Positions 35,451 through 63,783 of a stretch of DNA of 64,000 nucleotides are shown in pieces. Made by a program: the position numbers and the translations under genes. The stretch is from a virus (Duplodnaviria > Caudoviricetes). Positions within the stretch are counted from its first letter, which is position 1, and every line of letters starts with the position of its first letter. The DNA is taken from positions 1-64,000 of IMG/VR virus record IMGVR_UViG_3300032305_001732; one strand, 5' to 3'. The notes below the pieces were generated by a model. That model ran no database searches, was not told the DNA's origin, and saw nothing but the letters and a program-made list of their open reading frames with translations.

Positions 35451-36455
35451 ATGGCCAAAGGTTTAGACGTCGGTACCTCATTTGTCGTACTTGCGCAGGA
35501 CGGGGCTGAAGGTAATGTGCAGTACAAGGACTTCCGTGACGCGTTTTACGTCATTAAGCCGACAACTCCCGTCGCCACGAAGATGATTGAAAAAGGACTG
35601 CAGGGCAAAATCTTCGTCAAAGACGCTGACGGCAGTTTTATTCTGCTAGGCCAGGACGCTATCGAAAAAGCTGTGGAGCGCAATGATTCTGCTAAGCGCC
35701 CTATGTACCGCGGCGTAGTTAGCCCGAAGGAAAAAGACGCTAAACGTATTTTGGCCTATATCTTGAAAGAAGTAGCCGGAACTGCTGCTGAGCCGGGCGA
35801 GAAGCTTGTTTTCTGTATCCCTGCGCAGCCCGTCGATCAAGAGGACGAAGACTTTGACGTCGGTTATCACGAAGACGTTGTAAAGCTTGTGCTATCCGAA
35901 GTTGGTTACGCAGCTAGGGCAATTAACGAAGCAGAAGCGCTGTGTTACTCAGAGTTTGAGAACGACGATTACACGGGTATTGCGTTGTCTTGGGGCGCTG
36001 GCATGGTAAATTGCTGCGTCATGCTTAATGGCGAACCAACTGTTATGTTCTCGACCACCAAATCCGGCGACTGGGTTGATCGAATGTCAGCCGTCGCTGT
36101 AAATGTTCCTGATAGCGTAGTGCAGGCTGAAAAAGAGCATGGCGTATTTAAAGTCGGCGAGCCCAACGACAATCCGACTTTGGCAGCCGTGGCGTCATAT
36201 TATGAGCGCTTAGTAGACTACACGGCTAAACAGCTTACACACGCACTGACTGGTCATAAGTTACTGCCGCAATTTAAACACCCGCTGCCGGTTGCTGTTG
36301 CTGGCGGTACAAGCAAAGCTGACGGTTTTGTTGCCGCTTTTTCCGCTAAACTACAAGAGAGTGGTTTTCCGCTCGCCATTAAAGAGGTCCGCCACGCTGC
36401 TGACCCACTCCACGCTGTAGCCCGCGGCTGTCTAATCGCAGCCAAGATTTTATAA
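35451..36455 (+). CDS. Actin-like ATPase (salactin/MamK/MreB-related)
   Basis: MAKGLDVGTS (phosphate 1), RPMYRG, INEAEA, GIALSWGAGMVN (phosphate 2), GDWVD, VAGGTS (adenosine), DPLHAVARG. Confidence 0.9.
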   Translation: MAKGLDVGTSFVVLAQDGAEGNVQYKDFRDAFYVIKPTTPVATKMIEKGLQGKIFVKDADGSFILLGQDAIEKAVERNDSAKRPMYRGVVSPKEKDAKRILAYILKEVAGTAAEPGEKLVFCIPAQPVDQEDEDFDVGYHEDVVKLVLSEVGYAARAINEAEALCYSEFENDDYTGIALSWGAGMVNCCVMLNGEPTVMFSTTKSGDWVDRMSAVAVNVPDSVVQAEKEHGVFKVGEPNDNPTLAAVASYYERLVDYTAKQLTHALTGHKLLPQFKHPLPVAVAGGTSKADGFVAAFSAKLQESGFPLAIKEVRHAADPLHAVARGCLIAAKIL

Positions 36456-36479
36456 CCGTTTCGGGTTACGTATACGCGC

Positions 36480-36488
36480 TGTTAAAAT
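36480..36488 (+). promoter_or_regulatory. Extended -10 promoter
   Basis: TG-T-TAAAAT 5 nt before structured RNA. Confidence 0.55.
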
Positions 36489-36492
36489 GAGT

Positions 36493-36714
36493 TTGTCGTA
36501 AGTTAGTCGTGGTGGCCGGCTGGTTAGCGTTAGGGTGTTAAGCAGGGATGTGAGACGCCCTAATAGGAATCCGTGGTCAGGCTGCGGCCGCGCTCACGGT
36601 TGGTGGAGCAATGAATGCCGCACGAGGTTGAGTTTACACCTTAGAAAGTCATTGCTTTGCCCCGGTTCGCCGGGGTTCGGTCCTGTGGAAGGGGATCACA
36701 GGGGCTTACGACAA
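36493..36714 (+). ncRNA. ~220-nt multibranched structured RNA upstream of holin-like gene
   Basis: 11-bp closing stem TTGTCGTAAGT/GCTTACGACAA; internal 10-bp, 8-bp, 6-bp (TTCG loop) and further helices; followed by T-rich run. Confidence 0.7.
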
Positions 36715-37253: not shown

Positions 37254-38651
37254 ATGGACGGATTGTCTGTTTTATACCAGTCGACGCATTCGGCGCCGTT
37301 GTACAACATCGGTAACGCGTATGGCTGGCTAGCTAAATCGTCTAAAACAGCTAGCGCTGAATACCATCTATCCGGCCGGCTTTATTTAGCTAAAAGCGGC
37401 TGGCTTCTTTTATCTGTGCCAAATGCTCTCGTCCGTGGCGTATTTGACGCTATGTCACATGCCGGCGCTGAGCTGCCGCTTGCTGGCACTATGAATGTGC
37501 CCAACGTAGATAAAGAGCTTTTAAACGCGCATATCTCGGTTATGACGGCCGATGACGTAGAAGCTATTGGCGCTAACAAGATCAACGAGCGTGGGCATTC
37601 TTTTAAGTACGCGTTAGGCCACGTCAAAGAGCTTACGCCCGGCAACATTGACGGGGTTAGCAAAATTTGGGCTATTCAGATCGCGAGCCCAGAGCTGTCG
37701 GCCTTGCGCAAAAGCTATGGGTTGTCTGCGTTGCCTAAAGACGAGCCATTCCACATTACTGTAGCTGTGCGCCGTAAGAACGTGCTGCGCGAGAACGACG
37801 TTAGCAAGTTTGATACAGCTTCTGGCCGCGGGGAGCTAAAAGCGGCCGCAGACGCCGAAACTACGTATGAGTGCAATTGCGCTGGCCACTGCACCTGCCC
37901 GCCTAACTGCGTGTGCAAGAAATCCTGCTGCAAACCATCTAAAACAGCCGCCGACCTTATTCCTGGCGGCGCGGCGGACAACGTACCCGACAGTAAGTTC
38001 CCTAAAAAAGATTTAGCTTTAGGAGTCAAAGATGAGCGAGAACATACAAGCAATGATCAAATCGCCAAAGAAATTGCCAAAGATCATTTGCAAGAAGACC
38101 CCTCCTACTACGAAAAAGAAAAGCTGAAATCTGTAGGCAAAACACCGCAAATTATCTTACAACTACGTGCTGCAAAAGAGCATTCAGATAACAAGCGGTA
38201 TGACCAGAAAAACCACATTTTGCGGCAATTAATATCAGCCGCTCCGCAGGATTGGGTTGTCGATGATCCGAAACCTTACCATATGGGCATCACCCACGCC
38301 CCGACTAAATTTAAATTTCACGCTGATCCGAAGATAATTCCGCCTGTTGTGCCGGTAAGCAAAGCCGCGTCGAATAACCCGTATATTGCGCAACTATTTG
38401 CTACCCCGCCTAGTATGACTCCCGGCAATACTACTTGGCAGAATGTTGTGCAGCATTTGCGCAATGTTAAGACACGCGGAGATCGTCAGGCGTTTGCAGA
38501 ACAGAACACGCAAGGTTTATTGGCAGAACTCGACCCTGAATACAAGAAGAAATTGCACGCGCAGATTGCCAGCAAGAATTATCCGCGGCCCGATTTTTTA
38601 ACTAGGATGATTCAACAACACGGAGACAGCGCGTTGAACGCTGTGTCGTGA
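37254..38651 (+). CDS. Polyprotein-like: 2H phosphoesterase + Cys-rich peptide + DUF5661-like + further modules
   Basis: AHISV (37530) and FHITV (37752) 2H motifs; CNCAGHCTCPPNCVCKKSCC; PGGAADN...EHT...AKEIAKDHL.EDP.YY; K-x-A at 37344, 37839, 37941, 38361. Confidence 0.75.
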   Translation: MDGLSVLYQSTHSAPLYNIGNAYGWLAKSSKTASAEYHLSGRLYLAKSGWLLLSVPNALVRGVFDAMSHAGAELPLAGTMNVPNVDKELLNAHISVMTADDVEAIGANKINERGHSFKYALGHVKELTPGNIDGVSKIWAIQIASPELSALRKSYGLSALPKDEPFHITVAVRRKNVLRENDVSKFDTASGRGELKAAADAETTYECNCAGHCTCPPNCVCKKSCCKPSKTAADLIPGGAADNVPDSKFPKKDLALGVKDEREHTSNDQIAKEIAKDHLQEDPSYYEKEKLKSVGKTPQIILQLRAAKEHSDNKRYDQKNHILRQLISAAPQDWVVDDPKPYHMGITHAPTKFKFHADPKIIPPVVPVSKAASNNPYIAQLFATPPSMTPGNTTWQNVVQHLRNVKTRGDRQAFAEQNTQGLLAELDPEYKKKLHAQIASKNYPRPDFLTRMIQQHGDSALNAVS

Positions 38652-38964: not shown

Positions 38965-38988
38965 CAGCCAATTTTGTACAATAAAAGC

Positions 38989-40005
38989 ATGACAGCAATT
39001 TCTTCTAAGACTGCCCTTGCAGAGTGGCAGCAGGTGCCGGCTCGAGTCGCCAGGCTTTTGCCGATGGCGGCTGCGTTGCGTCATGCCCACGATAAAGCAG
39101 CCGCAGCAACAGGGCTATTGCAGCTGGCCGCTGTCAGCTGGGAGCCGGAAACCGCAAAGGTATTTGTTCATACAGCGCACCCGCAAACTGAGTACACGAA
39201 AAAAGCGTACTCGGACAAATTAGACGGCGAAGTGACATTTTTAACTACAGCGCCATCGACCGAGGCTGTTGTAGTCAAACTTGCTGAAACGTGGTTCCCG
39301 CAGATCGGGGAAGCTTGGCACGGCGCAAATAAAATGGTTGGCGGGCCTACGCCGCTATCAAATGCTATCGTGTCTGGATTAGCGCTCGGCGGCCTTGGCT
39401 ATGGCGCAGGCGCACTAGTTGAGAATCTGTTCCCAGAGCGTTACATAGAGCGCGGCCAATTGCGTAAACCGCTTGCCGCGTTAGGTGGTTTAGGTGGCTT
39501 AGGTATTGGCGCAATGAATGCCGACGCGTTGGCGAAAATACCCGAGCTGAATAAAAATTTTTGGCAGGCGTGGTTAATCAACACGGATAAAACAAAAATA
39601 CCGGAACCAGTTAAAGCTGCTAATTTTGCTTTGCACTCAAACATTCGCGCGCCGATAATCAAGGTTGATGCCTTTAATCGCGCTGTGTGGTCTGATGCTA
39701 GCCGCGGCTTTGACCAAACTGGGATTGTTGGCGATGGTGGATTCACAGCGCCGCGAGTCGCCGCCGCTACTACAGGAATTGTTTCCGGCATAGCGGCACA
39801 ATCGCGGTCGTCAATTATCAGCCCGGCTCACGTTATAACAGGTTTAGCGTCCGCGGGCGTCGGGTTGGCCACTGCTAGCCTTGCCGGTAGAACTCTTGGC
39901 GCGTTGGCTGGATTAACGCCAAGCGCACAAGAAAAAATACAAGATCTTGGGTTGTGGGGCGGGATGTTGAATGCTGTAATCCCGCCACTCTTTAGCGGAC
40001 GTTAA
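38989..40005 (+). CDS. Putative virion protein with K-x-A motifs and glycine zippers
   Basis: KTAL, KLAE, KAAN; GLALGGLGYGAG, ALGGLGGLGIG; TGTACAAT upstream. Confidence 0.75.
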   Translation: MTAISSKTALAEWQQVPARVARLLPMAAALRHAHDKAAAATGLLQLAAVSWEPETAKVFVHTAHPQTEYTKKAYSDKLDGEVTFLTTAPSTEAVVVKLAETWFPQIGEAWHGANKMVGGPTPLSNAIVSGLALGGLGYGAGALVENLFPERYIERGQLRKPLAALGGLGGLGIGAMNADALAKIPELNKNFWQAWLINTDKTKIPEPVKAANFALHSNIRAPIIKVDAFNRAVWSDASRGFDQTGIVGDGGFTAPRVAAATTGIVSGIAAQSRSSIISPAHVITGLASAGVGLATASLAGRTLGALAGLTPSAQEKIQDLGLWGGMLNAVIPPLFSGR

Positions 40006-42970: not shown

Positions 42971-43996
42971 ATGGCTGATACTGAATTTTCTTTCGAAAAC
43001 GTATATGACGTCGTAGAGTCTTATGAAAAGGGCTTTATTGGCGCAGTATGCGACCCAGTGGCAACAGAAAAACTGCAGGCTGATATTGCGGCAGCCGGCG
43101 GTTTGCCACAGGGAGCTATGGCGTGCTCTGCTTATGGCTTAGAGGACTCCGGGAAGGGCAAGCTTAGTCTGCCCTTCCTGGAGATCCTCAAGCTTTATCC
43201 GGACTCGTTACCGGGAGGCGCGCAGGGCCGTGGAGACTGTGTTTCATGGTCTACGCGAAACGCTGGCTTAACAACCATGTGTTGTGACATAACGAGTGGT
43301 ACCCCAGACGAGGCAAGCGGTAAGTTGGAAGGCGCTCCCGAGGTTAGCGACACTGCTCGCCTCGCAGGCGTCCTCAGCACCGAAGCGATTTACAATTGGC
43401 GCCGTCACGGAGGCGACGGCTGGTCATGCTCAGAAGCAGCTTGCGTTGTGCTTAAAGACAGTGGGCTGTGGCTGCGCAAAAAGTATGAAGAAATTGACGT
43501 TGATTTTACTGCATACAGCTCTCGTAACGCTGGCATCTACGGATCTAAAACTCCGCCGGATTCGTGGCGTAAGATCGGCGCTGATCATTTAATTAGAACA
43601 GCCACAGTTCTCGACACATACGAGCAGCTCCGCGACATGCTCGCCAACGGTTATGGTGTGAGTAGCTGCGGTGGTGAAGGCTTCTCATCTGTCCGTGATT
43701 TAAATGGTGTAAGTAACCGATCGGGCTCTTGGGCCCATGCGCTCGCTTATATCGCAGTTGACGACCGCCCAGAAATTATTAACATTTACGGCGAGCCATT
43801 AATAGCGGTCCAAAACAGCTGGGGAAATTGGAATGACGGTGGCCGCCGAATATTCGGTACGTTTGTCGATATTCCAGTTGGCTCGTTTTGGGCTCGCTGG
43901 TCTGACATTAAAAATCGCGACATGATCGCGTTGTCTGGTGTAAACGGGTGGCCGCCTAAGAAGCTAAAGAGCTACGGCGCGCGTGGGAACATTTAA
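42971..43996 (+). CDS. Papain-like (C1) cysteine protease
   Basis: QGRGDCVSW (oxyanion Gln + catalytic Cys), WAHAL (His), QNSWG (Asn). Confidence 0.85.
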   Translation: MADTEFSFENVYDVVESYEKGFIGAVCDPVATEKLQADIAAAGGLPQGAMACSAYGLEDSGKGKLSLPFLEILKLYPDSLPGGAQGRGDCVSWSTRNAGLTTMCCDITSGTPDEASGKLEGAPEVSDTARLAGVLSTEAIYNWRRHGGDGWSCSEAACVVLKDSGLWLRKKYEEIDVDFTAYSSRNAGIYGSKTPPDSWRKIGADHLIRTATVLDTYEQLRDMLANGYGVSSCGGEGFSSVRDLNGVSNRSGSWAHALAYIAVDDRPEIINIYGEPLIAVQNSWGNWNDGGRRIFGTFVDIPVGSFWARWSDIKNRDMIALSGVNGWPPKKLKSYGARGNI

Positions 43997-46671: not shown

Positions 46672-49600
46672 ATGCCAGACTTAAATCCGTCCAATTCTAT
46701 TCTCGGACCCACTACGCGCGAGTTCGGTGACGTTCAGTCACTGCGCAGCGGTATTTTTAATCAAGCGCAGCAGTCGGCGTTGCAAGTAGCGCCGTTTGAG
46801 CCTGGCGCTATTCGTACAGGCATTTTTAATGGCGTGCTGCAGCAAGCACAGAATATCAAGCCAATACAAAATGATCTTTATACGCTCAGCCTGCAAGACG
46901 TGAATTACGAAGGCCCCGAGAACTTTACAAAAAAAGATCACAAGCAGGCAGTGCTGTCACACGGCAGTCTGGCGCGTAAATTGCGTGGTACTTGGACGTT
47001 GACTGACAACGCGAGCGGCGAAGCAATATCGCAACGGCGCGCAACGATTGCGAATGTGCCCTATCTAACGCACGCCGGCACGTTTGTGAACAATGGCGTC
47101 GAGTACACGCTGGCCCACCAGATGCGTTTACGCCCAGGTGTGTATACGCGTGAAAAAGACAACGGCGAGCTGGAAGCGCATGTAAACGTCCTTCCAGGCA
47201 AAGGCCGCATGCATCGTTACTTTCTTGACCCGAAGACCGGCGTATTCAAGATTAATATCGGCCAGGCGCAGATTCCGCTTATGCCCATGCTTAAAGCAAT
47301 GGGTGTTCCAGAGCAGGAAATTCGCAAGGCGTGGGGTAATGAATTAACCGCCGTAAACATGGAGAAGGGCGATGCAGGAACTCTGGACAAACTGTATAAC
47401 CGGCTGGTTTATAAACCCGTTGCCGACCTTGATCCCGCTGGTAAGCAAAAAGCTATTGCGGAAGAATTCAGCAAGATGGAGCTGGACCCGGAAGTCACTA
47501 AAAGGACGCTCGGCGCGCCGATTAAAAACCTAACGCCAGACGCAGTGCTCGCAATCACTAAAAAGCTTATAGCAGTTAATCGTAAAGAAACTGATCCAGA
47601 TGACCGCGACAGCATGGCATTCCAGCAAGTATTCGGCCCTGAAGACCTTATTGCCGAGCGCTTCACAAAAGACCGGAATACGCTGCGGCAATTGCTATGG
47701 AAAGCTACGGCAAAAAAGACATTAGATCACGTACCGACTGGCGTATTTAACAAAGCTATTACGGCTGCGCTTGTCGGCAGCGGGTTAGGCTCGAGTCTTG
47801 AAGAAATTAACCCTGCTGAAATCTTCGACCACCAGGCTCGAGTTACGCGGCTAGGCGAGGGCGGTATTGGTAGTCTCGATGCCGTGCCGGTTGAAAGCCG
47901 AAGCGTGCAGCCTAGTCACTTCGGATTTGTGGATTATCTCCGCACTCCTGAATCTGGCAAAGTTGGCGTTGATATGCGTTTTGCTCGCGGGGCGCTTAAG
48001 GGCGCTGACGGAAAGATTTACACGCAGGTAAAAAACCTACAGACGGGCGAGACCGAATATAAATCTCCACAGGACATTGCCGATGCGCCGCTGGCGTTTC
48101 CCGGCGAAGATACGTCCGATCTGCCGACAGTCGCCGCTATTGTTAATGGCAAAATGAAATACGTACCGCGTGAGCAGGTGCAGTACATGCTTCCCCACAT
48201 GGACGCGTCTTTCTCTTCGCTGTCTAACATGGTGCCACTCAAATCCATGATGAAGGGCCATCGCGTCATCATGGGTAGCCGTATGTTCACGCAAGCATTA
48301 CCGCTCGTTGGCGCTGAGGCGCCTTTTATTCAATCGGGCGTCCACGGTACACCAGACCGATCGTACGAAGATGAGATGGGCAAGCACATGGGCGCAATCC
48401 ATGCAGACGGCCCGGCCCAAGTTGTATCTGTAACGCCTGACGAGATCGTTCTTCGCGATAAGGACGGCAACAAACGTTCCGTCGATCTTTACAACGATGC
48501 ACCATTTAATCGTAAAACATTCTGGACGCAAACACCGACAGTTCAGCCTGGTGATACGGTAAAGCCGGGACAGTTACTGGCAACGTCTAATTTTACTGAC
48601 AAGCAAGGCACTGCTGCGCTTGGGTTAAATATGCGCGTAGGCTATCTGCCGTTTAAAGGCTACGTGTATGACGACGCTGTGGTTGTTTCGGAATCTGCGG
48701 CAAAGCGCCTGACGTCTGAGCATATGTATCAGCACGAAGCAGAAGCCGACGACAACAATCATATAGACAAGCGTAAGTTCGTTAGTTTGTTTCCGCAGGA
48801 ATATGATCGCAAGACGCTAGACAACTTTGACGATAACGGCGTGGTTAAAAAGGGTACGACTGTTAAATACGGCGACCCGCTTATTCTTGTCAGCAAAGCT
48901 AATGAAACAACATACGGGCAGGTATATCGCGGCAAGTCGGCTAACTTCGCAAACGACTCCGTGACCTGGAATCACCATTCGCCGGGTATAGTTACAGACG
49001 TGTCGCCGACTAAAAAAGGTTACAGCGTTGTAGTTAAAAATCAGGCCCAGATGGAAGTAGGCGATAAGCTTACAGGTCGCTTCGGCGATAAGGGCGTCGT
49101 GGCAGCTGTTATTCCTGACGATCAAATGCCGAAAGACACACAGGATCGTCCGCTTGAGGTTCTGGTGAGTCCGCTTGGTTTGGCTAGTCGTATTAATCCT
49201 TCGCAGCTTGTAGAAGCCGCGCTAGGTAAAGTTGCAGAGCGGACTGGTCAGCCTTACAAGATTCAAGACTTCGATAGTGCGCGGGATCTCGTGCAATTTG
49301 CAAAAGACGAATTGCGCAAAAACAACATGAACGATCTTGAGAGCGTCACAGACCCAGAAACTGGTCGCAAGATTAAAGACGTGCTTGTAGGCAATCGTTT
49401 CTTTATGAAATTGCACCATACAGCTGAGGCCAAAGCACAGGGGCGATCGACCGGCGGCTACACGGCTGAAGGCGCGCCGGCAAAGGGTGGTGAAACAGGC
49501 TCTAAGCGAATCGGCACACTCGATCTTGGCGCTTTATTATCTCACGGCGCTGGGCAGGTTATTCGGGACGCGAAGATGGTGCGCGGGCAGGCTAATCCTG

Positions 49601-51123
49601 AGTACTGGTCGCAATTCATGGCTGGCTATTCTGCGCCGTTACCTAAGATACCGCAGGTGTACCACAAGTTTGTTGAGCAGTTGCGCGGTGCTGGTATTAA
49701 CACAGTACGCGAAGGTACTAAAACAAACATAATGGCGCTAACCAATAAGGACATTGACGAGCTTGCCGGCGATCGCGAGATTCAAAATGCAGAGACTGTT
49801 GATTGGAAATCTGGCATGCGTCCAAAGACGGGCGGACTGTTTGACGAGAAGTTAACAGGCGGCCACAACGGTAATCGCTGGTCTAAGATCACGTTGCACG
49901 AGCCTATGCCGAATCCTGTGATGGAAGAGCCTATTCGGCGTGTGCTTGGGCTTACAGAAAATAAATTCCGTAGTGTGCTGGCAGGGAAAGAGCAGTTGGG
50001 CGATAAAACTGGCCCGTCGGCTATTAAAGACGCGCTAAGCCGCATAGACCTACCGAAGGCTATGGAGCAGGCGCGCCAAGATATTCATTCTGGGCGTAAA
50101 ATGGCCCGTGATGCTGCTGTTCGCCGGTTAGCATTCTTAAAAAGTGCAGAAAAGACTGGTGTACATCCGGAAAATTGGATGCTGGACAAGATGCCGGTGA
50201 TCCCGCCGGCGTTTAGACCCGTGTCGACGATGGGGCAAAAGAAGATGCCGCTCGTTGCTGACGCTAATTATCTCTATAAAGAGCTTCTAGACGCTAACGG
50301 AGCGCTAAAAGACTCGTCCGGCGTGTTGTCAGACACTGGCGACGAGCGTTTAGGGTTATACGACGCCATGAAAGGCGTTACAGGCCTCGGCGACCCAACA
50401 CAATCAAAGAATGTAGAGCGCCGAGTACGTGGTTTTCTGTCGCAGATCTTTGGAAATTCGCCAAAATACGGCACAGTGCAGCGAAAACTGCTTAGCAGCA
50501 CTGTAGACCTAGTCGGCCGCGCTGTTATTACGCCTAATCCCGACCTAGACATGGATCAGGTGGCGCTTCCGGAAGAAAAAGCCTGGGAAATATACAAGCC
50601 GTTTATTGTACGCGGCCTTGTGCGGCGTGGTTTGCCTCGTATGGAAGCTATCAACGCATTTGACGGCAAGAGTAAAGAAGCGCTAAGCGAACTTCAGACG
50701 CAAATGAACTCGCGGCCAATTATTATCAATCGCGCGCCCGTTTTACATCGTTATGGTATGATGGCCTTTTATCCAAGGCTGACAAAAAACAAAGTTATGG
50801 AGGTTAGTCCGCTTGTAACCAAGGGTTTCGGCGCCGACTTCGACGGTGACGCGATGCAATATCACGTCCCAAGCACGGATGACGCTGCCAAAGAAGCTGT
50901 TGCGAAGATGCTGCCAAGTAAAAACTTGTTTGCGGCTTCTACATTCAAAGCGCACTACACTCCAGTAGCGGAATATCAGTCAGGGCTGTATGTTGCTTCT
51001 AATAGAATCAACAAACAAGCGCAGCCGAAGGTATTTAGAAGTAAACAAGACGCAATTGCGGCATATCGACGTGGCGACATTGAGGTTGACACGCCAGTAC
51101 ATATCGTAGAGAGCGACGATTAA
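46672..51123 (+). CDS. Multisubunit RNA polymerase, beta subunit fused to beta' N-terminal half (catalytic)
   Basis: beta motifs TPESGKVG, GDKLTGRFGDKGVV, SRINPSQ, KLHH...RSTG, RIG; beta' motifs GGLFD, LDKMPVIPPAFRP, GRAVITP, NRAPVLHR, GADFDGD. Confidence 0.95.
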   Translation: MPDLNPSNSILGPTTREFGDVQSLRSGIFNQAQQSALQVAPFEPGAIRTGIFNGVLQQAQNIKPIQNDLYTLSLQDVNYEGPENFTKKDHKQAVLSHGSLARKLRGTWTLTDNASGEAISQRRATIANVPYLTHAGTFVNNGVEYTLAHQMRLRPGVYTREKDNGELEAHVNVLPGKGRMHRYFLDPKTGVFKINIGQAQIPLMPMLKAMGVPEQEIRKAWGNELTAVNMEKGDAGTLDKLYNRLVYKPVADLDPAGKQKAIAEEFSKMELDPEVTKRTLGAPIKNLTPDAVLAITKKLIAVNRKETDPDDRDSMAFQQVFGPEDLIAERFTKDRNTLRQLLWKATAKKTLDHVPTGVFNKAITAALVGSGLGSSLEEINPAEIFDHQARVTRLGEGGIGSLDAVPVESRSVQPSHFGFVDYLRTPESGKVGVDMRFARGALKGADGKIYTQVKNLQTGETEYKSPQDIADAPLAFPGEDTSDLPTVAAIVNGKMKYVPREQVQYMLPHMDASFSSLSNMVPLKSMMKGHRVIMGSRMFTQALPLVGAEAPFIQSGVHGTPDRSYEDEMGKHMGAIHADGPAQVVSVTPDEIVLRDKDGNKRSVDLYNDAPFNRKTFWTQTPTVQPGDTVKPGQLLATSNFTDKQGTAALGLNMRVGYLPFKGYVYDDAVVVSESAAKRLTSEHMYQHEAEADDNNHIDKRKFVSLFPQEYDRKTLDNFDDNGVVKKGTTVKYGDPLILVSKANETTYGQVYRGKSANFANDSVTWNHHSPGIVTDVSPTKKGYSVVVKNQAQMEVGDKLTGRFGDKGVVAAVIPDDQMPKDTQDRPLEVLVSPLGLASRINPSQLVEAALGKVAERTGQPYKIQDFDSARDLVQFAKDELRKNNMNDLESVTDPETGRKIKDVLVGNRFFMKLHHTAEAKAQGRSTGGYTAEGAPAKGGETGSKRIGTLDLGALLSHGAGQVIRDAKMVRGQANPEYWSQFMAGYSAPLPKIPQVYHKFVEQLRGAGINTVREGTKTNIMALTNKDIDELAGDREIQNAETVDWKSGMRPKTGGLFDEKLTGGHNGNRWSKITLHEPMPNPVMEEPIRRVLGLTENKFRSVLAGKEQLGDKTGPSAIKDALSRIDLPKAMEQARQDIHSGRKMARDAAVRRLAFLKSAEKTGVHPENWMLDKMPVIPPAFRPVSTMGQKKMPLVADANYLYKELLDANGALKDSSGVLSDTGDERLGLYDAMKGVTGLGDPTQSKNVERRVRGFLSQIFGNSPKYGTVQRKLLSSTVDLVGRAVITPNPDLDMDQVALPEEKAWEIYKPFIVRGLVRRGLPRMEAINAFDGKSKEALSELQTQMNSRPIIINRAPVLHRYGMMAFYPRLTKNKVMEVSPLVTKGFGADFDGDAMQYHVPSTDDAAKEAVAKMLPSKNLFAASTFKAHYTPVAEYQSGLYVASNRINKQAQPKVFRSKQDAIAAYRRGDIEVDTPVHIVESDD

Positions 51124-52091: not shown

Positions 52092-53951
52092 ATGCTGAAA
52101 ACAACGCTCGGCCAACTTTTGATTAACAACGCGCTTCCGCAAGACCTGCGGGACCATAACCGCGTTTTAAACAAAAAGAACATGATCGCGTTGGCTACCG
52201 AGATAGCGCAAAAATATCCTGACAAGTACCGCGAAATAACAAAGCGATTACAGGACATCGGCAACGAGACGTCCTACACGACTAACGGCTTGTCTGTAGG
52301 CCTAGACGCTATTCGCCCGGCTGTGTCTGCAATTAAAAAGCAGCACGAGGTTAGGCAGCAGTTGCGTGGAATTCTCGCCGACCGCACGCTGGATGACAAA
52401 ACACGCAATATGCGCATTCTCGAGATGACGTCGAAGGCGCAGCGCGAGCTTGTAGACTCTGTGTACAAAGACGCAGAGGAGCAAGACAATCCCTTATTCC
52501 ACCAAGTATCAGGCGGGGTTAAAGGCAATAAGTTTCAGTTAAACAGCATCATTGGCGCTGACCTGCAATACGTCGATCACAAAAACGAGCCAATTCCAAT
52601 TCCGGTAATGCGCGGCTACAGCCAGGGTCTGCGACCTGTTGAATATTTCGCTGGCGCGTTCGGCACACGAAAAGGGCTAATTGACTTAAAGACAGCTACG
52701 TCCGACGCAGGTTTCTTTGCCAAGCAACTTGCGCAGATGAACCACAGACTGCTCGTGACGGCTGACGACGACGAGATCGCTGATGACACGCGCGGGTTTC
52801 CGTCTGATGTTGATGACGTAGATAACGAAGGCGCATTGTTAGCTAGAGGCGTCGGACCGTATAAGCGCAACACGACACTAACGCCGAAGATACTAAAAGA
52901 TCTTAAATCGCTAGGTATTAAAGACATTCTTGTACGCAGCCCGACTGTTGGCGGTCCGGAAGACGGCGGCGTATACGCTAAAGACGTAGGCTATCGCGAG
53001 AAGAATAGACTACCGCCGACTGGCGATTATGTCGGTATCGCGGCAGCTCAGGCGCTTGCGGAACCTGTTACGCAGTCGCAGATTAGCTCAAAGCATTCTG
53101 GCGGCGTCGGTGGCGCTGGCGCTATTTCTGGTTTTAAGGCGCTCAACGCGCTCGTGCAGGTGCCAGAGAAATACCCAAATGGTGCTACGCATTCATCTAT
53201 TGACGGCGCAGTGCAAGAAATCCGGCCGGCCGCGCAGGGTGGCAGTTATGTAGTAATTAACGGCCAAGACCATTACGTACCTACTGGCGTGGCAGTGACA
53301 GTCAAACGTGGCGACAATGTTGAAGCCGGTGACGTTGTATCTGAGGGTATGCCAAGTCCAAAAGAAATAGTCGCGCACAAAGGCATTGGCGAAGGTCGTC
53401 GATATTTTGTGCAGGCTATGAAGCAAGTTATGGGCAACAGCGGCATTACAGCGCATCGCCGTAATATTGAGCTGCTTTCGCGCGGGCTTATTAATCACGT
53501 ACGCATGACAGACGAATACGGTGATTATTTACCTGACGACGTAGTGCCGTACTCAATGATTGAACGTAACTGGCAGCCGCGTGCAGGAAGCGTCCGCGCA
53601 GCGCCAAAAAGCCTGCAAGGACATTACCTCGAAAAACCGACTCTGCATTATTCTGTTGGAACAAAAATCGGTAAATCTGTCGTAGACAATTTAAACAAAT
53701 ACGGCATTACAGACGTCGAAGCGCATAAAGAGCCGCCGCCGTTTGAACCAGAGATGGTGCGCGGCATGGCTAATATCTCGAAAGATCCTGACTGGATGAC
53801 TCGCATGCTCGGGTCATATCAGCAGAAAAGTTTACTGCAAGCCACACACCGCGGCGGCGTTAGCGATACGGCAGGTACTAGTTTTGTACCGACGCTTGCC
53901 CGCGGAGAAACATTTGGTTTAGGCGGCGCGACAAGTGGCTGGAAACCGTAA
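52092..53951 (+). CDS. Multisubunit RNA polymerase, beta' C-terminal subunit
   Basis: KGNKFQL, YFAGAFGTRKGLID...TSDAGF (bridge helix), GIAAAQALAEPVTQ (trigger loop), HRRNIELL. Confidence 0.95.
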   Translation: MLKTTLGQLLINNALPQDLRDHNRVLNKKNMIALATEIAQKYPDKYREITKRLQDIGNETSYTTNGLSVGLDAIRPAVSAIKKQHEVRQQLRGILADRTLDDKTRNMRILEMTSKAQRELVDSVYKDAEEQDNPLFHQVSGGVKGNKFQLNSIIGADLQYVDHKNEPIPIPVMRGYSQGLRPVEYFAGAFGTRKGLIDLKTATSDAGFFAKQLAQMNHRLLVTADDDEIADDTRGFPSDVDDVDNEGALLARGVGPYKRNTTLTPKILKDLKSLGIKDILVRSPTVGGPEDGGVYAKDVGYREKNRLPPTGDYVGIAAAQALAEPVTQSQISSKHSGGVGGAGAISGFKALNALVQVPEKYPNGATHSSIDGAVQEIRPAAQGGSYVVINGQDHYVPTGVAVTVKRGDNVEAGDVVSEGMPSPKEIVAHKGIGEGRRYFVQAMKQVMGNSGITAHRRNIELLSRGLINHVRMTDEYGDYLPDDVVPYSMIERNWQPRAGSVRAAPKSLQGHYLEKPTLHYSVGTKIGKSVVDNLNKYGITDVEAHKEPPPFEPEMVRGMANISKDPDWMTRMLGSYQQKSLLQATHRGGVSDTAGTSFVPTLARGETFGLGGATSGWKP

Positions 53952-62460: not shown

Positions 62461-63783
62461 ATGCGGCAATTAAGCAAAGAAGCCGAGGCGAACCTTTTAG
62501 CGGCCATTGAAAAAGCCGCCACACAGGTTAATGCCGGCAAGATGCCAAACGAGGCGATCGTTAAGATTGCCAAAGAGCAGGATATGCCGGCCGGGCAAGT
62601 CCGGCTGATGGTGCACGCATATAACACCGGCCGAACGACTACTACCCGCGAAAAGGGTGCGTCAACGTCTGAGAAGGCAGCTGATTTCCAATTAGCTGAC
62701 GTAGACGCCATCCTTGACACGCTTTATCCGAAAGCTGTTAAAACGGCTGCGGAAATTACTCGCGGCGAAGTGGTTTCAACTGAATACGCCGTTTCCCCCA
62801 CTAGCTTTTTAGCTCGGCGGGTAGCGGGTATGCAGAAGACCGCAACAGCCATGCCCGAAAAGACATGGATTCCGCCGCCCCGTGACGAGCATGCCGCAGT
62901 TATGCGCAGCTACAGCGAGAAGCAGGCTGCCAAACGAGTTGAAGAAGAGCTGCGTCGCGAGTCGACTATGGCGTATGGCAAAGCTGCAAATGCTATGGAG
63001 CAGCTACACGAGTATTTCCGGCGTCCTGGCAACATGGCGTTTAAAGACGCTGTGCGCGAAACTGAATTACGTTACGGCGTAGATGCTGTAAATGTTTTAA
63101 AGAAGGTTGCCGCTGTTTATCCGCATCTGGAAAAGCAGGCTGGTACAAGCAAGCGCCACTTCGGCACCTGCGACGCGTGTGACCTTGCGCAGAACGTACT
63201 TACCGCTGTGGAAAGTTATAACGACGCAAAGGGCCGGCTTGCGCCACCAAAGACTGCCGCCGTTAAAGCGCCTGAGCCCGAGGTTGTAACAGGCTCAATT
63301 CTGTACAACCCGCTCGAGGAGTCACTCGACCTAAAAAAAGCTAATGCGTTATCCCCAATTCCAATGGGCCCTGTAGGGATGACGCAATATCTTGGGCAGC
63401 ATATGTCTACGGGAATGAACAGCTATATCAAAGAGCCGGACAAGATGCTCAATGACACGCTGAAGGATATCACTGACCCAGATCATGAACGTAAGCTTCG
63501 TAATATCCGCGCCCAAAGCGTAGTTACGGATCTTATGACAAATGACCCGGTTATCTCTGGGCATGATCCGCGTGAAGTAGCTAATGCGTTTAACGAGCTG
63601 GCTGAAGTAGCGCCCAGCTTTATGGACTCAACTGCGACGGTGCAGGCTTTACTGCGCAAACGACTCGAGGCCGGCCAGCTCGCCGATTTCGATATCAAGC
63701 AATTGCTCGATATGGAAAAGGTCAAAGCGGAAAAGCAAAAGAACATTGTCGACGCCCGCAGCAGCGAAATGGGCATGATCTAA
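62461..63783 (+). CDS. K-x-A-rich putative head/scaffold-like protein (440 aa)
   Basis: At least ten K-x-A motifs (KEAE, KAAT, KAAD, KTAA, KTAT, KQAA, KAAN, KVAA, KQAG, KTAA). Confidence 0.8.
   Translation: MRQLSKEAEANLLAAIEKAATQVNAGKMPNEAIVKIAKEQDMPAGQVRLMVHAYNTGRTTTTREKGASTSEKAADFQLADVDAILDTLYPKAVKTAAEITRGEVVSTEYAVSPTSFLARRVAGMQKTATAMPEKTWIPPPRDEHAAVMRSYSEKQAAKRVEEELRRESTMAYGKAANAMEQLHEYFRRPGNMAFKDAVRETELRYGVDAVNVLKKVAAVYPHLEKQAGTSKRHFGTCDACDLAQNVLTAVESYNDAKGRLAPPKTAAVKAPEPEVVTGSILYNPLEESLDLKKANALSPIPMGPVGMTQYLGQHMSTGMNSYIKEPDKMLNDTLKDITDPDHERKLRNIRAQSVVTDLMTNDPVISGHDPREVANAFNELAEVAPSFMDSTATVQALLRKRLEAGQLADFDIKQLLDMEKVKAEKQKNIVDARSSEMGMI

Follow-up and report, generated by a model that had tools for sequence, protein, structure and literature searches.

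Polyvalent proteins are phage-encoded proteins that combine several unrelated effector domains in an architecture that varies between close relatives (Iyer 2017, PMC5512222). They are thought to be injected first-strike toolkits. Their repertoire includes 2H phosphoesterase domains, which were never seen linked to RNA ligases and were proposed to act, delivered by the virion, as RNases or as degraders of nucleotide defence signals (PMC5512222). Here we describe a gene of this kind, located at positions 37254-38651 of a 64,000-nucleotide stretch of viral DNA (positions 1 to 64,000 of the IMG/VR record IMGVR_UViG_3300032305_001732; Duplodnaviria, Caudoviricetes) that we refer to as the window. 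Its product of 465 amino acids (aa) carries a 2H module near its N-terminus, followed by a series of further modules, and the tripeptide K-x-A recurs at the joints.

The head proteases T4 gp21 and SPN3US gp245 cut core, scaffold and ejection proteins at A-x-E, Ser being favoured at P1' (the residue after the cut), and the scaffold-like proteins of these phages carry many copies of the cleavage motif (PMC10052503). Among described 2H enzymes are Acb1 of T4 and FBB1 (PDB 7t26, 7t27), a stand-alone early cytoplasmic protein directed against CBASS (cyclic-oligonucleotide-based antiphage signalling system), and the RNA 2',3'-cyclic phosphodiesterases LigT/ThpR and drCPDase (PDB 1iuh, 5ldk, 5h7e).

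By its predicted domain content, the gene belongs to the known polyvalent class, defined by two or more unrelated effector-type domains in a variable architecture, because a 2H and a DUF5661 domain are joined here and NUDIX and kinase cassettes are shuffled among its relatives. It is also like the proteins described by Iyer 2017, for which injection and an anti-nucleotide-signal or RNase role were predicted, in that its 2H domain is not linked to an RNA ligase; it differs from them in having neither a MuF/portal fusion nor a built-in peptidase domain, and in carrying K-x-A-[A/S] at every joint and after an N-terminal leader (PMC5512222). Comparison of the predicted proteins strongly backs the view that, across the family, K-x-A stands at almost all module joints and on either side of the 2H domain. 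That the gene encodes an effector polyprotein which is cut by a head protease, packaged and injected has, in our judgement, an even chance of being right. A three-residue joint shared with head-core proteins would offer a simple and testable mechanism by which the many domains of polyvalent proteins are released.

The original prediction, made from the letters of the window, had described a 2H phosphoesterase that is released from a K-x-A polyprotein together with a metallothionein-like peptide. All six motif positions it gave (K31, H93, H167, K196, K230 and K370) match the stop-free translation of the open reading frame (ORF) at 37254-38651 on the + strand. The gene and its parts are as follows.

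37254..38651 including the stop codon, + strand: whole gene, multi-module polyvalent protein of 465 aa (ORF translation, homologues, synteny)
37254..37352, + strand: N-terminal leader, residues 1-33, ending K31-T-A33 (AlphaFold2 (AF2) model: helix 14-28, then coil)
37353..37847, + strand: predicted 2H phosphoesterase module, residues 34-198, with a folded core (39-178) and a disordered tail (181-198) ending RGELK196-A-A (Pfam, AF2, VIA-align, Foldseek)
37530..37538, + strand: first catalytic motif H93-I-S95, within H93-I-S-V (conservation)
37752..37760, + strand: second catalytic motif H167-I-T169, within H167-I-T-V (conservation)
37839..37847, + strand: joint K196-A-A closing the 2H module (in a stretch with a predicted local distance difference test score (pLDDT) below 50; RGELKAA conserved)
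37848..37949, + strand: Cys-rich cassette, residues 199-232, with 8 Cys, ending K230-T-A (optional indel, K-x-A flanks)
37950..38141, + strand: DUF5661 module, residues 233-296, three helices (Pfam PF18905; AF2 helices 251-296)
38142..38369, + strand: helix plus three-strand module, residues 297-372, ending K370-A-A (pLDDT 90-98, many invariant columns)
38370..38648, + strand: C-terminal helical module, residues 373-465 (AF2 helices 376-464; kept in all full-length relatives)

The four K-x-A tripeptides at the joints start at nucleotides 37344 (K31-T-A), 37839 (K196-A-A), 37941 (K230-T-A) and 38361 (K370-A-A).

The 2H module and its exchangeable partners

We assign residues 34-198 to a 2H phosphoesterase module with both catalytic motifs intact and a predicted activity. 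Pfam places 2H-SAK (PF22547) at residues 88-176, scoring 36.8 bits where the cut-off is 27. Across 15 full-length relatives neither of the two H-x-S/T motifs varies, and H93 and H167 are each at least 90% conserved in an alignment of 64 sequences that reaches about 31% identity. A pair of H-x-S/T motifs 60-95 residues apart is present in 118 of 146 representatives of the wider family, these 118 being taken from 50%-identity clusters. The AF2 model built from the 64-sequence alignment has a mean pLDDT of 85, and the core at 39-178 exceeds 93.

A Foldseek search of this model against the PDB returned 2H proteins in all of its first 13 rows, with weak E-values of 0.03-0.4. The rows include Usb1 (the best match, 6d31, E 0.034), the penguinpox cyclic GMP-AMP (cGAMP) phosphodiesterase, drCPDase, ns2 of mouse hepatitis virus and LigT-like proteins. 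With VIA-align, the 32 best rows against the PDB were likewise all 2H enzymes, covering residues 47-178 at Z 6.6-4.0 (Acb1 6.6, drCPDase 6.2, LigT-type 5.9, Usb1 5.7, CNPase 5.5, rotavirus VP3 about 4); these Z values are middling, yet 2H is the sole superfamily that fills the list. Matches in BFVD were phage entries named 'Swiss Army Knife 2H', '2'-5' RNA ligase superfamily' and Acb1. We assign the 2H fold because the Foldseek and VIA-align lists agree on 2H enzymes. The predicted identity of the N-terminal module was therefore borne out by Pfam, motif conservation, the AF2 model and the structure searches. The proposed structural comparison with Acb1 and LigT recovered the fold, but it did not choose between Acb1 and LigT/ThpR.

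Acb1 is the best VIA-align match (root-mean-square deviation 3.6 over 108 residues) and shares the 2H fold, the two H-x-S/T motifs and the phage origin. It is unlike the module described here in that identity is only 10-11%, no sequence family joins the two and its Z is tied with those of CPDase, LigT and Usb1; moreover, Acb1 stands alone, whereas here the 2H domain heads what appears to be a modular precursor. LigT/ThpR and drCPDase have the same fold and motifs (Z 5.0-6.2). They differ in that ThpR/LigT models gave no NCBIfam match at E up to 10, Pfam lists 2H-SAK alone at E up to 1, and no partner ligase (PF09414, PF01139) was found in the relatives.

More than 560 close homologues were collected, from contigs of up to about 209 kb, and all begin with MDGLSVL. 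They keep the 2H module and the C-terminal 170 residues and exchange cassettes in the middle, at the same joints. This middle part may be empty or hold the Cys cassette, NUDIX domains of one or two types, a P-loop kinase (SKI/AAA_18) or a proline-rich module without known family. These cassettes are also combined, so that the proteins reach 987 residues. An exhaustive library search extended the set to 4446 proteins of 162-2913 aa that are headed by the leader and 2H region (query residues about 13-190). Two NUDIX types and the P-loop kinase are found in varied order between the 2H and DUF5661 modules of P0008, P0038, P0022, P0061 and P0121, and each of these cassettes is bordered by K-x-A-A. 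As a side result, the NUDIX and kinase cassettes of the relatives form a catalogue of candidate nucleotide-targeting effectors. When the gene was compared by tblastn with a phage genome collection, only the DUF5661 part found matches, in four huge uncultured phages, and the 2H part found none; a megablast of 20 kb against phage genomes gave no match.

The cassette that follows the 2H module holds all 8 Cys of the protein at positions 207-226. The 31 residues that separate A198 from K230 (residues 199-229) contain them, and the other 434 residues are without Cys. The pattern reads C-x-C-x3-C-x-C-x3-C-x-C-x3-CC, the last Cys of the final pair being variable, C(C). We could detect this cassette in 69 of 120 close relatives and in 10 of the 146 representatives; K-x-A stands on both flanks in 57 of the former and in all of the latter. 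P0003, a relative with 87% identity, cleanly lacks the cassette, and in P0002 and P0011 it follows a different module. AF2 models it with low confidence (pLDDT 47-62). Eight Cys within 20 residues, arranged as C-x-C pairs spaced by three residues, are reminiscent of metallothioneins and of Zn3Cys9 clusters (pre-SET/CXC). However, unlike metallothioneins, the peptide matches no family model (no Pfam match at E up to 1), and it is an optional cassette. No metallothionein chain appeared in a PDB sequence search at E up to 10, a search in which short biased peptides score poorly; the best match there, to the pre-SET Zn3Cys9 cluster of SUVH4, was not significant (E 0.36). The cassette is thus best described from its sequence as a small, optional, metal-cluster-like module that resembles metallothioneins by pattern only. 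Of the 'metallothionein-like' peptide originally proposed between KAA and KTA, the Cys-rich pattern and the borders stand and homology to the metallothionein family does not.

A zinc-ribbon-like CxxC...CxxC pattern was also seen in 18 of the 146 representatives, in several of them immediately after the 2H domain; distant 2H representatives with such a module behind the 2H domain are, for example, P0143, P0149, P0160, P0162, P0248 and P0258. A putative small metal-binding module behind the 2H domain is a recurring theme among distant members.

Downstream of the Cys peptide, the original prediction of a DUF5661-like module was confirmed by a Pfam match above the gathering score (PF18905, residues 252-288, 32.3 bits against a cut-off of 27). 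The module at 297-372 matches no known family in Pfam or by structure alignment to the PDB; its consensus is AKEHSDxxRY...ILRQL...W.VDD...GITH.PT.F.FH, and it is also found in distant representatives. The C-terminal module (373-465) has just weak helical matches in the PDB. A sequence search of the PDB with the whole 465-aa protein gave no match, and neither this protein nor most of its neighbours belong to a PHROGs family.

K-x-A at the joints and in the putative head genes

What exceeds chance is the position of K-x-A across relatives, not its count in the 465-aa protein. In 71 of the 118 representatives the second His is followed by a K-x-A at a distance of 17-18 residues, and in 99 by one within 45 residues. 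These post-2H joints are dominated by K-A-A (70), with S, A or G coming next in 67 of the 99. On the other side of the domain, nearly all of 113 representatives have a K-x-A 55-62 residues before the first His, where it closes a leader of about 20-35 residues with a Y..G.A...L helix. The extended motif K-x-A-[AS] was seen 273 times in the cluster representatives, against 83 expected. In a 116-sequence alignment of the family, 311 of 750 borders of indels (at least 25 columns long) fall within 4 residues of a K-x-A, against 63 expected; the sequences are related and not independent, so this is to be read as a ratio and not as a p-value.

The cassette joints of the relatives all read K-[A/T]-A-[A/S], the preceding module ending for example in ...LKAA, ...KTAA, ...AKKTAA or ...KAKAAS, and a logo from 240 distinct joint sites gives [L/E/K]-K-[A/T]-A-[A/S]-[D/A/E]. 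In the AF2 model of the 465-aa protein, the four K-x-A-[A/S] sites are found where the chain is coil or the confidence dips: behind helix 14-28, within 181-206 (pLDDT below 50), at 226-232 and near residue 370. K118-Y-A, the fifth K-x-A of the protein, sits inside a modelled strand and is probably irrelevant to processing.

We also noticed that the product of the next large gene (window 38974-40005), which probably starts at an internal ATG (MTAISSKTALAEW...), begins with residues similar to positions 29-37 of the 2H protein (SSKTASAEY), either by chance or because the two share a motif at the end of the leader.

K-x-A is conspicuous in a second set of genes. In five consecutive genes at contig positions 62461-68376, it is the top of all 400 a-x-b pairs in a scan for which no pattern had been picked beforehand, with 49 occurrences against 21.5 expected (z 5.9, a value that is somewhat optimistic since the block was chosen after its counts had been noticed); in the remaining genes it is not among the top pairs. 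The first gene of the block lies within the window:

62461..63783, + strand: scaffold- or core-like protein of 440 aa with 14 K-x-A (shuffle test, conservation)

About 4.5 K-x-A would be expected in this 440-aa protein, and none of 5000 shuffles reached as many. Around ten of its K-x-A are kept in five relatives of about 205 kb while the flanking residues drift, so that from its sequence it looks like a scaffold or core protein that would be cut into small pieces.

The block ends just before the gene of a 308-aa protein (contig 69028-69954; L086:10029-10955), which keeps 87-93% identity in relatives with no more than about 50% identity in the 2H protein. Because of this identity among relatives, it is the best capsid candidate and likely the major capsid protein. 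It has a single K-Q-A, at residues 25-27, within an N-terminus too conserved for the importance of this tripeptide to be judged.

A protease candidate is encoded by another ORF nearby, which begins 1091 bases past the end of the window (contig 65091-66569; L086:6092-7570) and encodes 492 aa with 16 K-x-A, against about 4.4 expected. Its N-terminal 240 residues, ending ...FFDISHVFRPADRIAY, are near-invariant in 20 relatives, and most of its K-x-A lie in the C-terminal half, where they are conserved. In a protein-language-model search with the N-terminal half, the S77, S80 and S78 prohead proteases made up three of the four nearest named Atlas clusters (0.89-0.91). We regard a prohead protease with a scaffold-like tail as a weak lead for this protein. 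A search for the S77 prohead protease in five complete relatives gave no match; the control genomes gave none either.

The resemblance to the cargo of T4, SPN3US and phiKZ lies, at the level of sequence, in a short motif at the end of a leader, between modules and in scaffold or core proteins. Like the L/I-x-E of T4 gp21 and the A-x-E of SPN3US/phiKZ gp245/gp175, the motif has three residues with a free middle position; as in those phages, it stands at the ends of N-terminal leaders, is repeated in scaffold/core proteins and is followed by a small P1' residue. Unlike in those phages, the motif is K-x-A, with Ala rather than Glu as the presumed P1, and it would cut between several cargo modules instead of just removing a propeptide. 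A P1 Ala followed by Ser or Ala at P1' is reminiscent of herpesvirus assemblin sites, and phage prohead proteases share the assemblin fold.

Proposed processing, delivery and role

Cleavage of the joints by a head protease is a plausible prediction, because K-x-A marks the joints of the family and is enriched in the genes before the capsid candidate. The precursor would enter the prohead by way of its leader or its conserved C-terminal part. There, the joints would serve as cutting sites for the head-maturation protease, with Lys at P3, Ala at P1 and a small residue at P1', and the separated modules would be injected together with the DNA. Once inside the cell, the 2H enzyme would hydrolyse phosphodiester or cyclic-phosphate bonds, either of nucleotide defence signals (as Acb1 does) or of RNA ends, and the NUDIX and kinase cassettes of the relatives would attack other nucleotide substrates.

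A bolder form of this proposal takes K-x-A followed by A or S, with the cut between them, as a head-protease code of the whole lineage, by which a single cassette-shuffled gene yields separately released capsid cargos including a metallothionein-like peptide. We put this forward tentatively, and as somewhat doubtful. Equally tentative is the list of cargos that such a code would release, namely the leader, the 2H enzyme, the NUDIX and kinase enzymes, DUF5661 and a free metal-cluster peptide of 34 residues. If the lineage does use such a code, its polyvalent proteins are true polyproteins and a phage injects a metallothionein-like peptide. A limited literature search found no description of K-x-A-[A/S] punctuation in polyvalent proteins, and a lineage-wide punctuation common to polyvalent and head-core proteins appears to be new.

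Several observations weigh against processing and delivery. The 465-aa protein has 5 K-x-A against 4.4 expected (shuffle p = 0.46), which is chance level; the K-x-A borders of the polyprotein as first proposed are backed by the family-level statistics of position, not by an excess of the motif in the protein itself. Neither the window proteome (123 K-x-A against 117 expected) nor N-terminal 50-residue stretches in general are enriched, and the z value of the head block is, as said, somewhat optimistic. The whole linker RGELKAA is conserved in the 15 full-length relatives, not K-x-A alone, and the K-A-A that follows the 2H domain may cap the domain structurally or act as a conserved linker. Some 25 kb separate the gene from the nearest head-type genes downstream, and it has no MuF/portal fusion; shared K-x-A is its only link to head or packaging genes. 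As for the 492-aa protease candidate, it has no Pfam match and no PDB profile match, hhalign aligned only four of its residues with T4 gp21, and AF2 gave its N-terminal half a pLDDT below 50 and no usable fold. At the level of function, no NCBIfam model gave a match at E up to 10, and the 2H clade, and hence the substrate, is not readable from the fold, because Acb1, CPDase, LigT and Usb1 lie within one unit of Z. For every member of the family, cutting, packaging and injection are steps that we infer from sequence and from analogy.

Many of these points would suit a multidomain enzyme that works uncut inside the cell and is never packaged, with K-x-A-A as a flexible linker or domain cap that tolerates the exchange of cassettes. 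Such an enzyme would explain a motif count at chance, a gene that sits at a distance from the head genes, in the company of membrane, actin and protease genes, and the conservation of the whole RGELKAA linker. Lys/Ala-rich linkers are, besides, common, and the searches confirmed no protease. However, K-x-A is the top spaced pair in the scaffold/core-like genes beside the capsid gene, where the sites are conserved. Furthermore, a leader that ends in K-x-A precedes the 2H domain in nearly all of the 113 representatives, as is typical of capsid-targeted, protease-trimmed cargo in T4 and SPN3US (PMC10052503), and the residue at P1' is small (S, A or G) in 67 of 99 joints. We therefore consider an uncut enzyme rather unlikely.

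With regard to the role of the 2H enzyme within a packaged and injected polyprotein, we rank the degradation of nucleotide defence signals first, RNA-end processing or RNase activity second, and other roles third, judging from sequence and model. A toolkit aimed at nucleotides is favoured because the sister cassettes are NUDIX enzymes and a kinase of the small-molecule type.

The original prediction had also offered tRNA-end healing. In such a pathway, the 2H enzyme would open the 2',3'-cyclic phosphates of tRNAs cut by host anticodon nucleases and the kinase of the relatives would phosphorylate the 5'-OH. In its favour, the best-fitting Pfam family, 2H-SAK, takes its name from the 'Swiss Army Knife' proteins of RNA repair, a P-loop kinase is joined to 2H in some relatives in the manner of the healing half of fungal Trl1, and five tRNA genes lie in the window. 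RNA ligases, moreover, are present in virions of phage Arash (PMC10585845). In the contig and four complete relatives of about 205 kb, however, no RNA ligase of PF09414 (Rnl2/DNA-ligase-type) or PF01139 (RtcB) was found, although control genomes matched; PF09511 (T4 Rnl1) had no match in the four relatives, and the control genomes gave none either. The 465-aa protein itself is without a kinase, no ThpR/LigT model of NCBIfam matches, and polyvalent-type 2H domains have never been seen with RNA ligases, which led to RNase or signal degradation being favoured for them (PMC5512222). A self-contained heal-and-seal repair of tRNA is thus unlikely, despite the pairing of 2H with a kinase in relatives, because the PF09414 and PF01139 ligases were not found in the contig and the four relatives and the published survey saw no 2H-ligase link, and we disfavour RNA-end healing as the role of this enzyme. 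An offensive, Usb1-like RNase that trims or cuts host RNA, leaves cyclic phosphates and acts as an injected host-shutoff factor is improbable: Usb1 is the best Foldseek match (6d31, E 0.034; tied Z 5.7), RNase activity is one of the two roles favoured in PMC5512222 and 18 of 146 representatives have, behind the 2H domain, zinc-ribbon or Cys modules with a possible affinity for nucleic acid, but the structural scores do not separate the 2H subfamilies and the co-occurring NUDIX and small-molecule-kinase-like cassettes point to nucleotides over RNA.

If the polyprotein is indeed cut at K-x-A and delivered, the sequences of thousands of uncultivated phages would directly allow the prediction of cargo modules and of where they begin and end, and the optional cassettes (2H, two NUDIX types, kinase and Cys cluster) would make up a catalogue of candidate anti-defence enzymes against nucleotide-based immunity. 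Should the idea of processing prove wrong, the gene would remain a new and clean case of a polyvalent protein headed by 2H.

Genomic setting

The window holds genes of one strand from a viral contig of 76.6 kb. They include a fused beta/beta' RNA polymerase (RNAP) with an extra beta' piece, a volactin-type actin, an M10 protease, glycosyl- and methyltransferases, PhoH and the tRNA genes mentioned above. The relatives come from metagenomic contigs, in IMG/VR and elsewhere, that measure 195-209 kb; terminal repeats are present in two of them, and five are 100% complete according to CheckV. The source is an uncultivated lineage of tailed phages with genomes of about 200 kb. Gene order is kept in 14 relatives and runs from the actin through a small membrane protein to the 2H-headed gene, then on to the M10 protease and the RNAP. 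Across these syntenic relatives the 2H-headed protein is 46-64% identical, against mostly 70-80% for the actin, the gene at 42971 and the RNAP. By these comparisons it is a syntenic core gene that diverges more rapidly than the genes around it.

The spacer between the actin and the small membrane-protein gene (window 36455-36657) measures about 200 nucleotides here and about 0.9-3 kb in relatives (L010, L050 and others). Because its length differs among relatives, this spacer upstream of the 2H-headed gene appears to be a variable insertion spot. The fused beta/beta' RNAP occupies 46672-51123, and a separate piece with the beta' C-terminus lies at 52092-53951. By RNAP, the nearest cultured phages are Salmonella phage Arash and Vibrio phages D69, D148 and D181, at about 31% identity; in Arash virions, no protein is more abundant than the homologous RNAP (PMC10585845).

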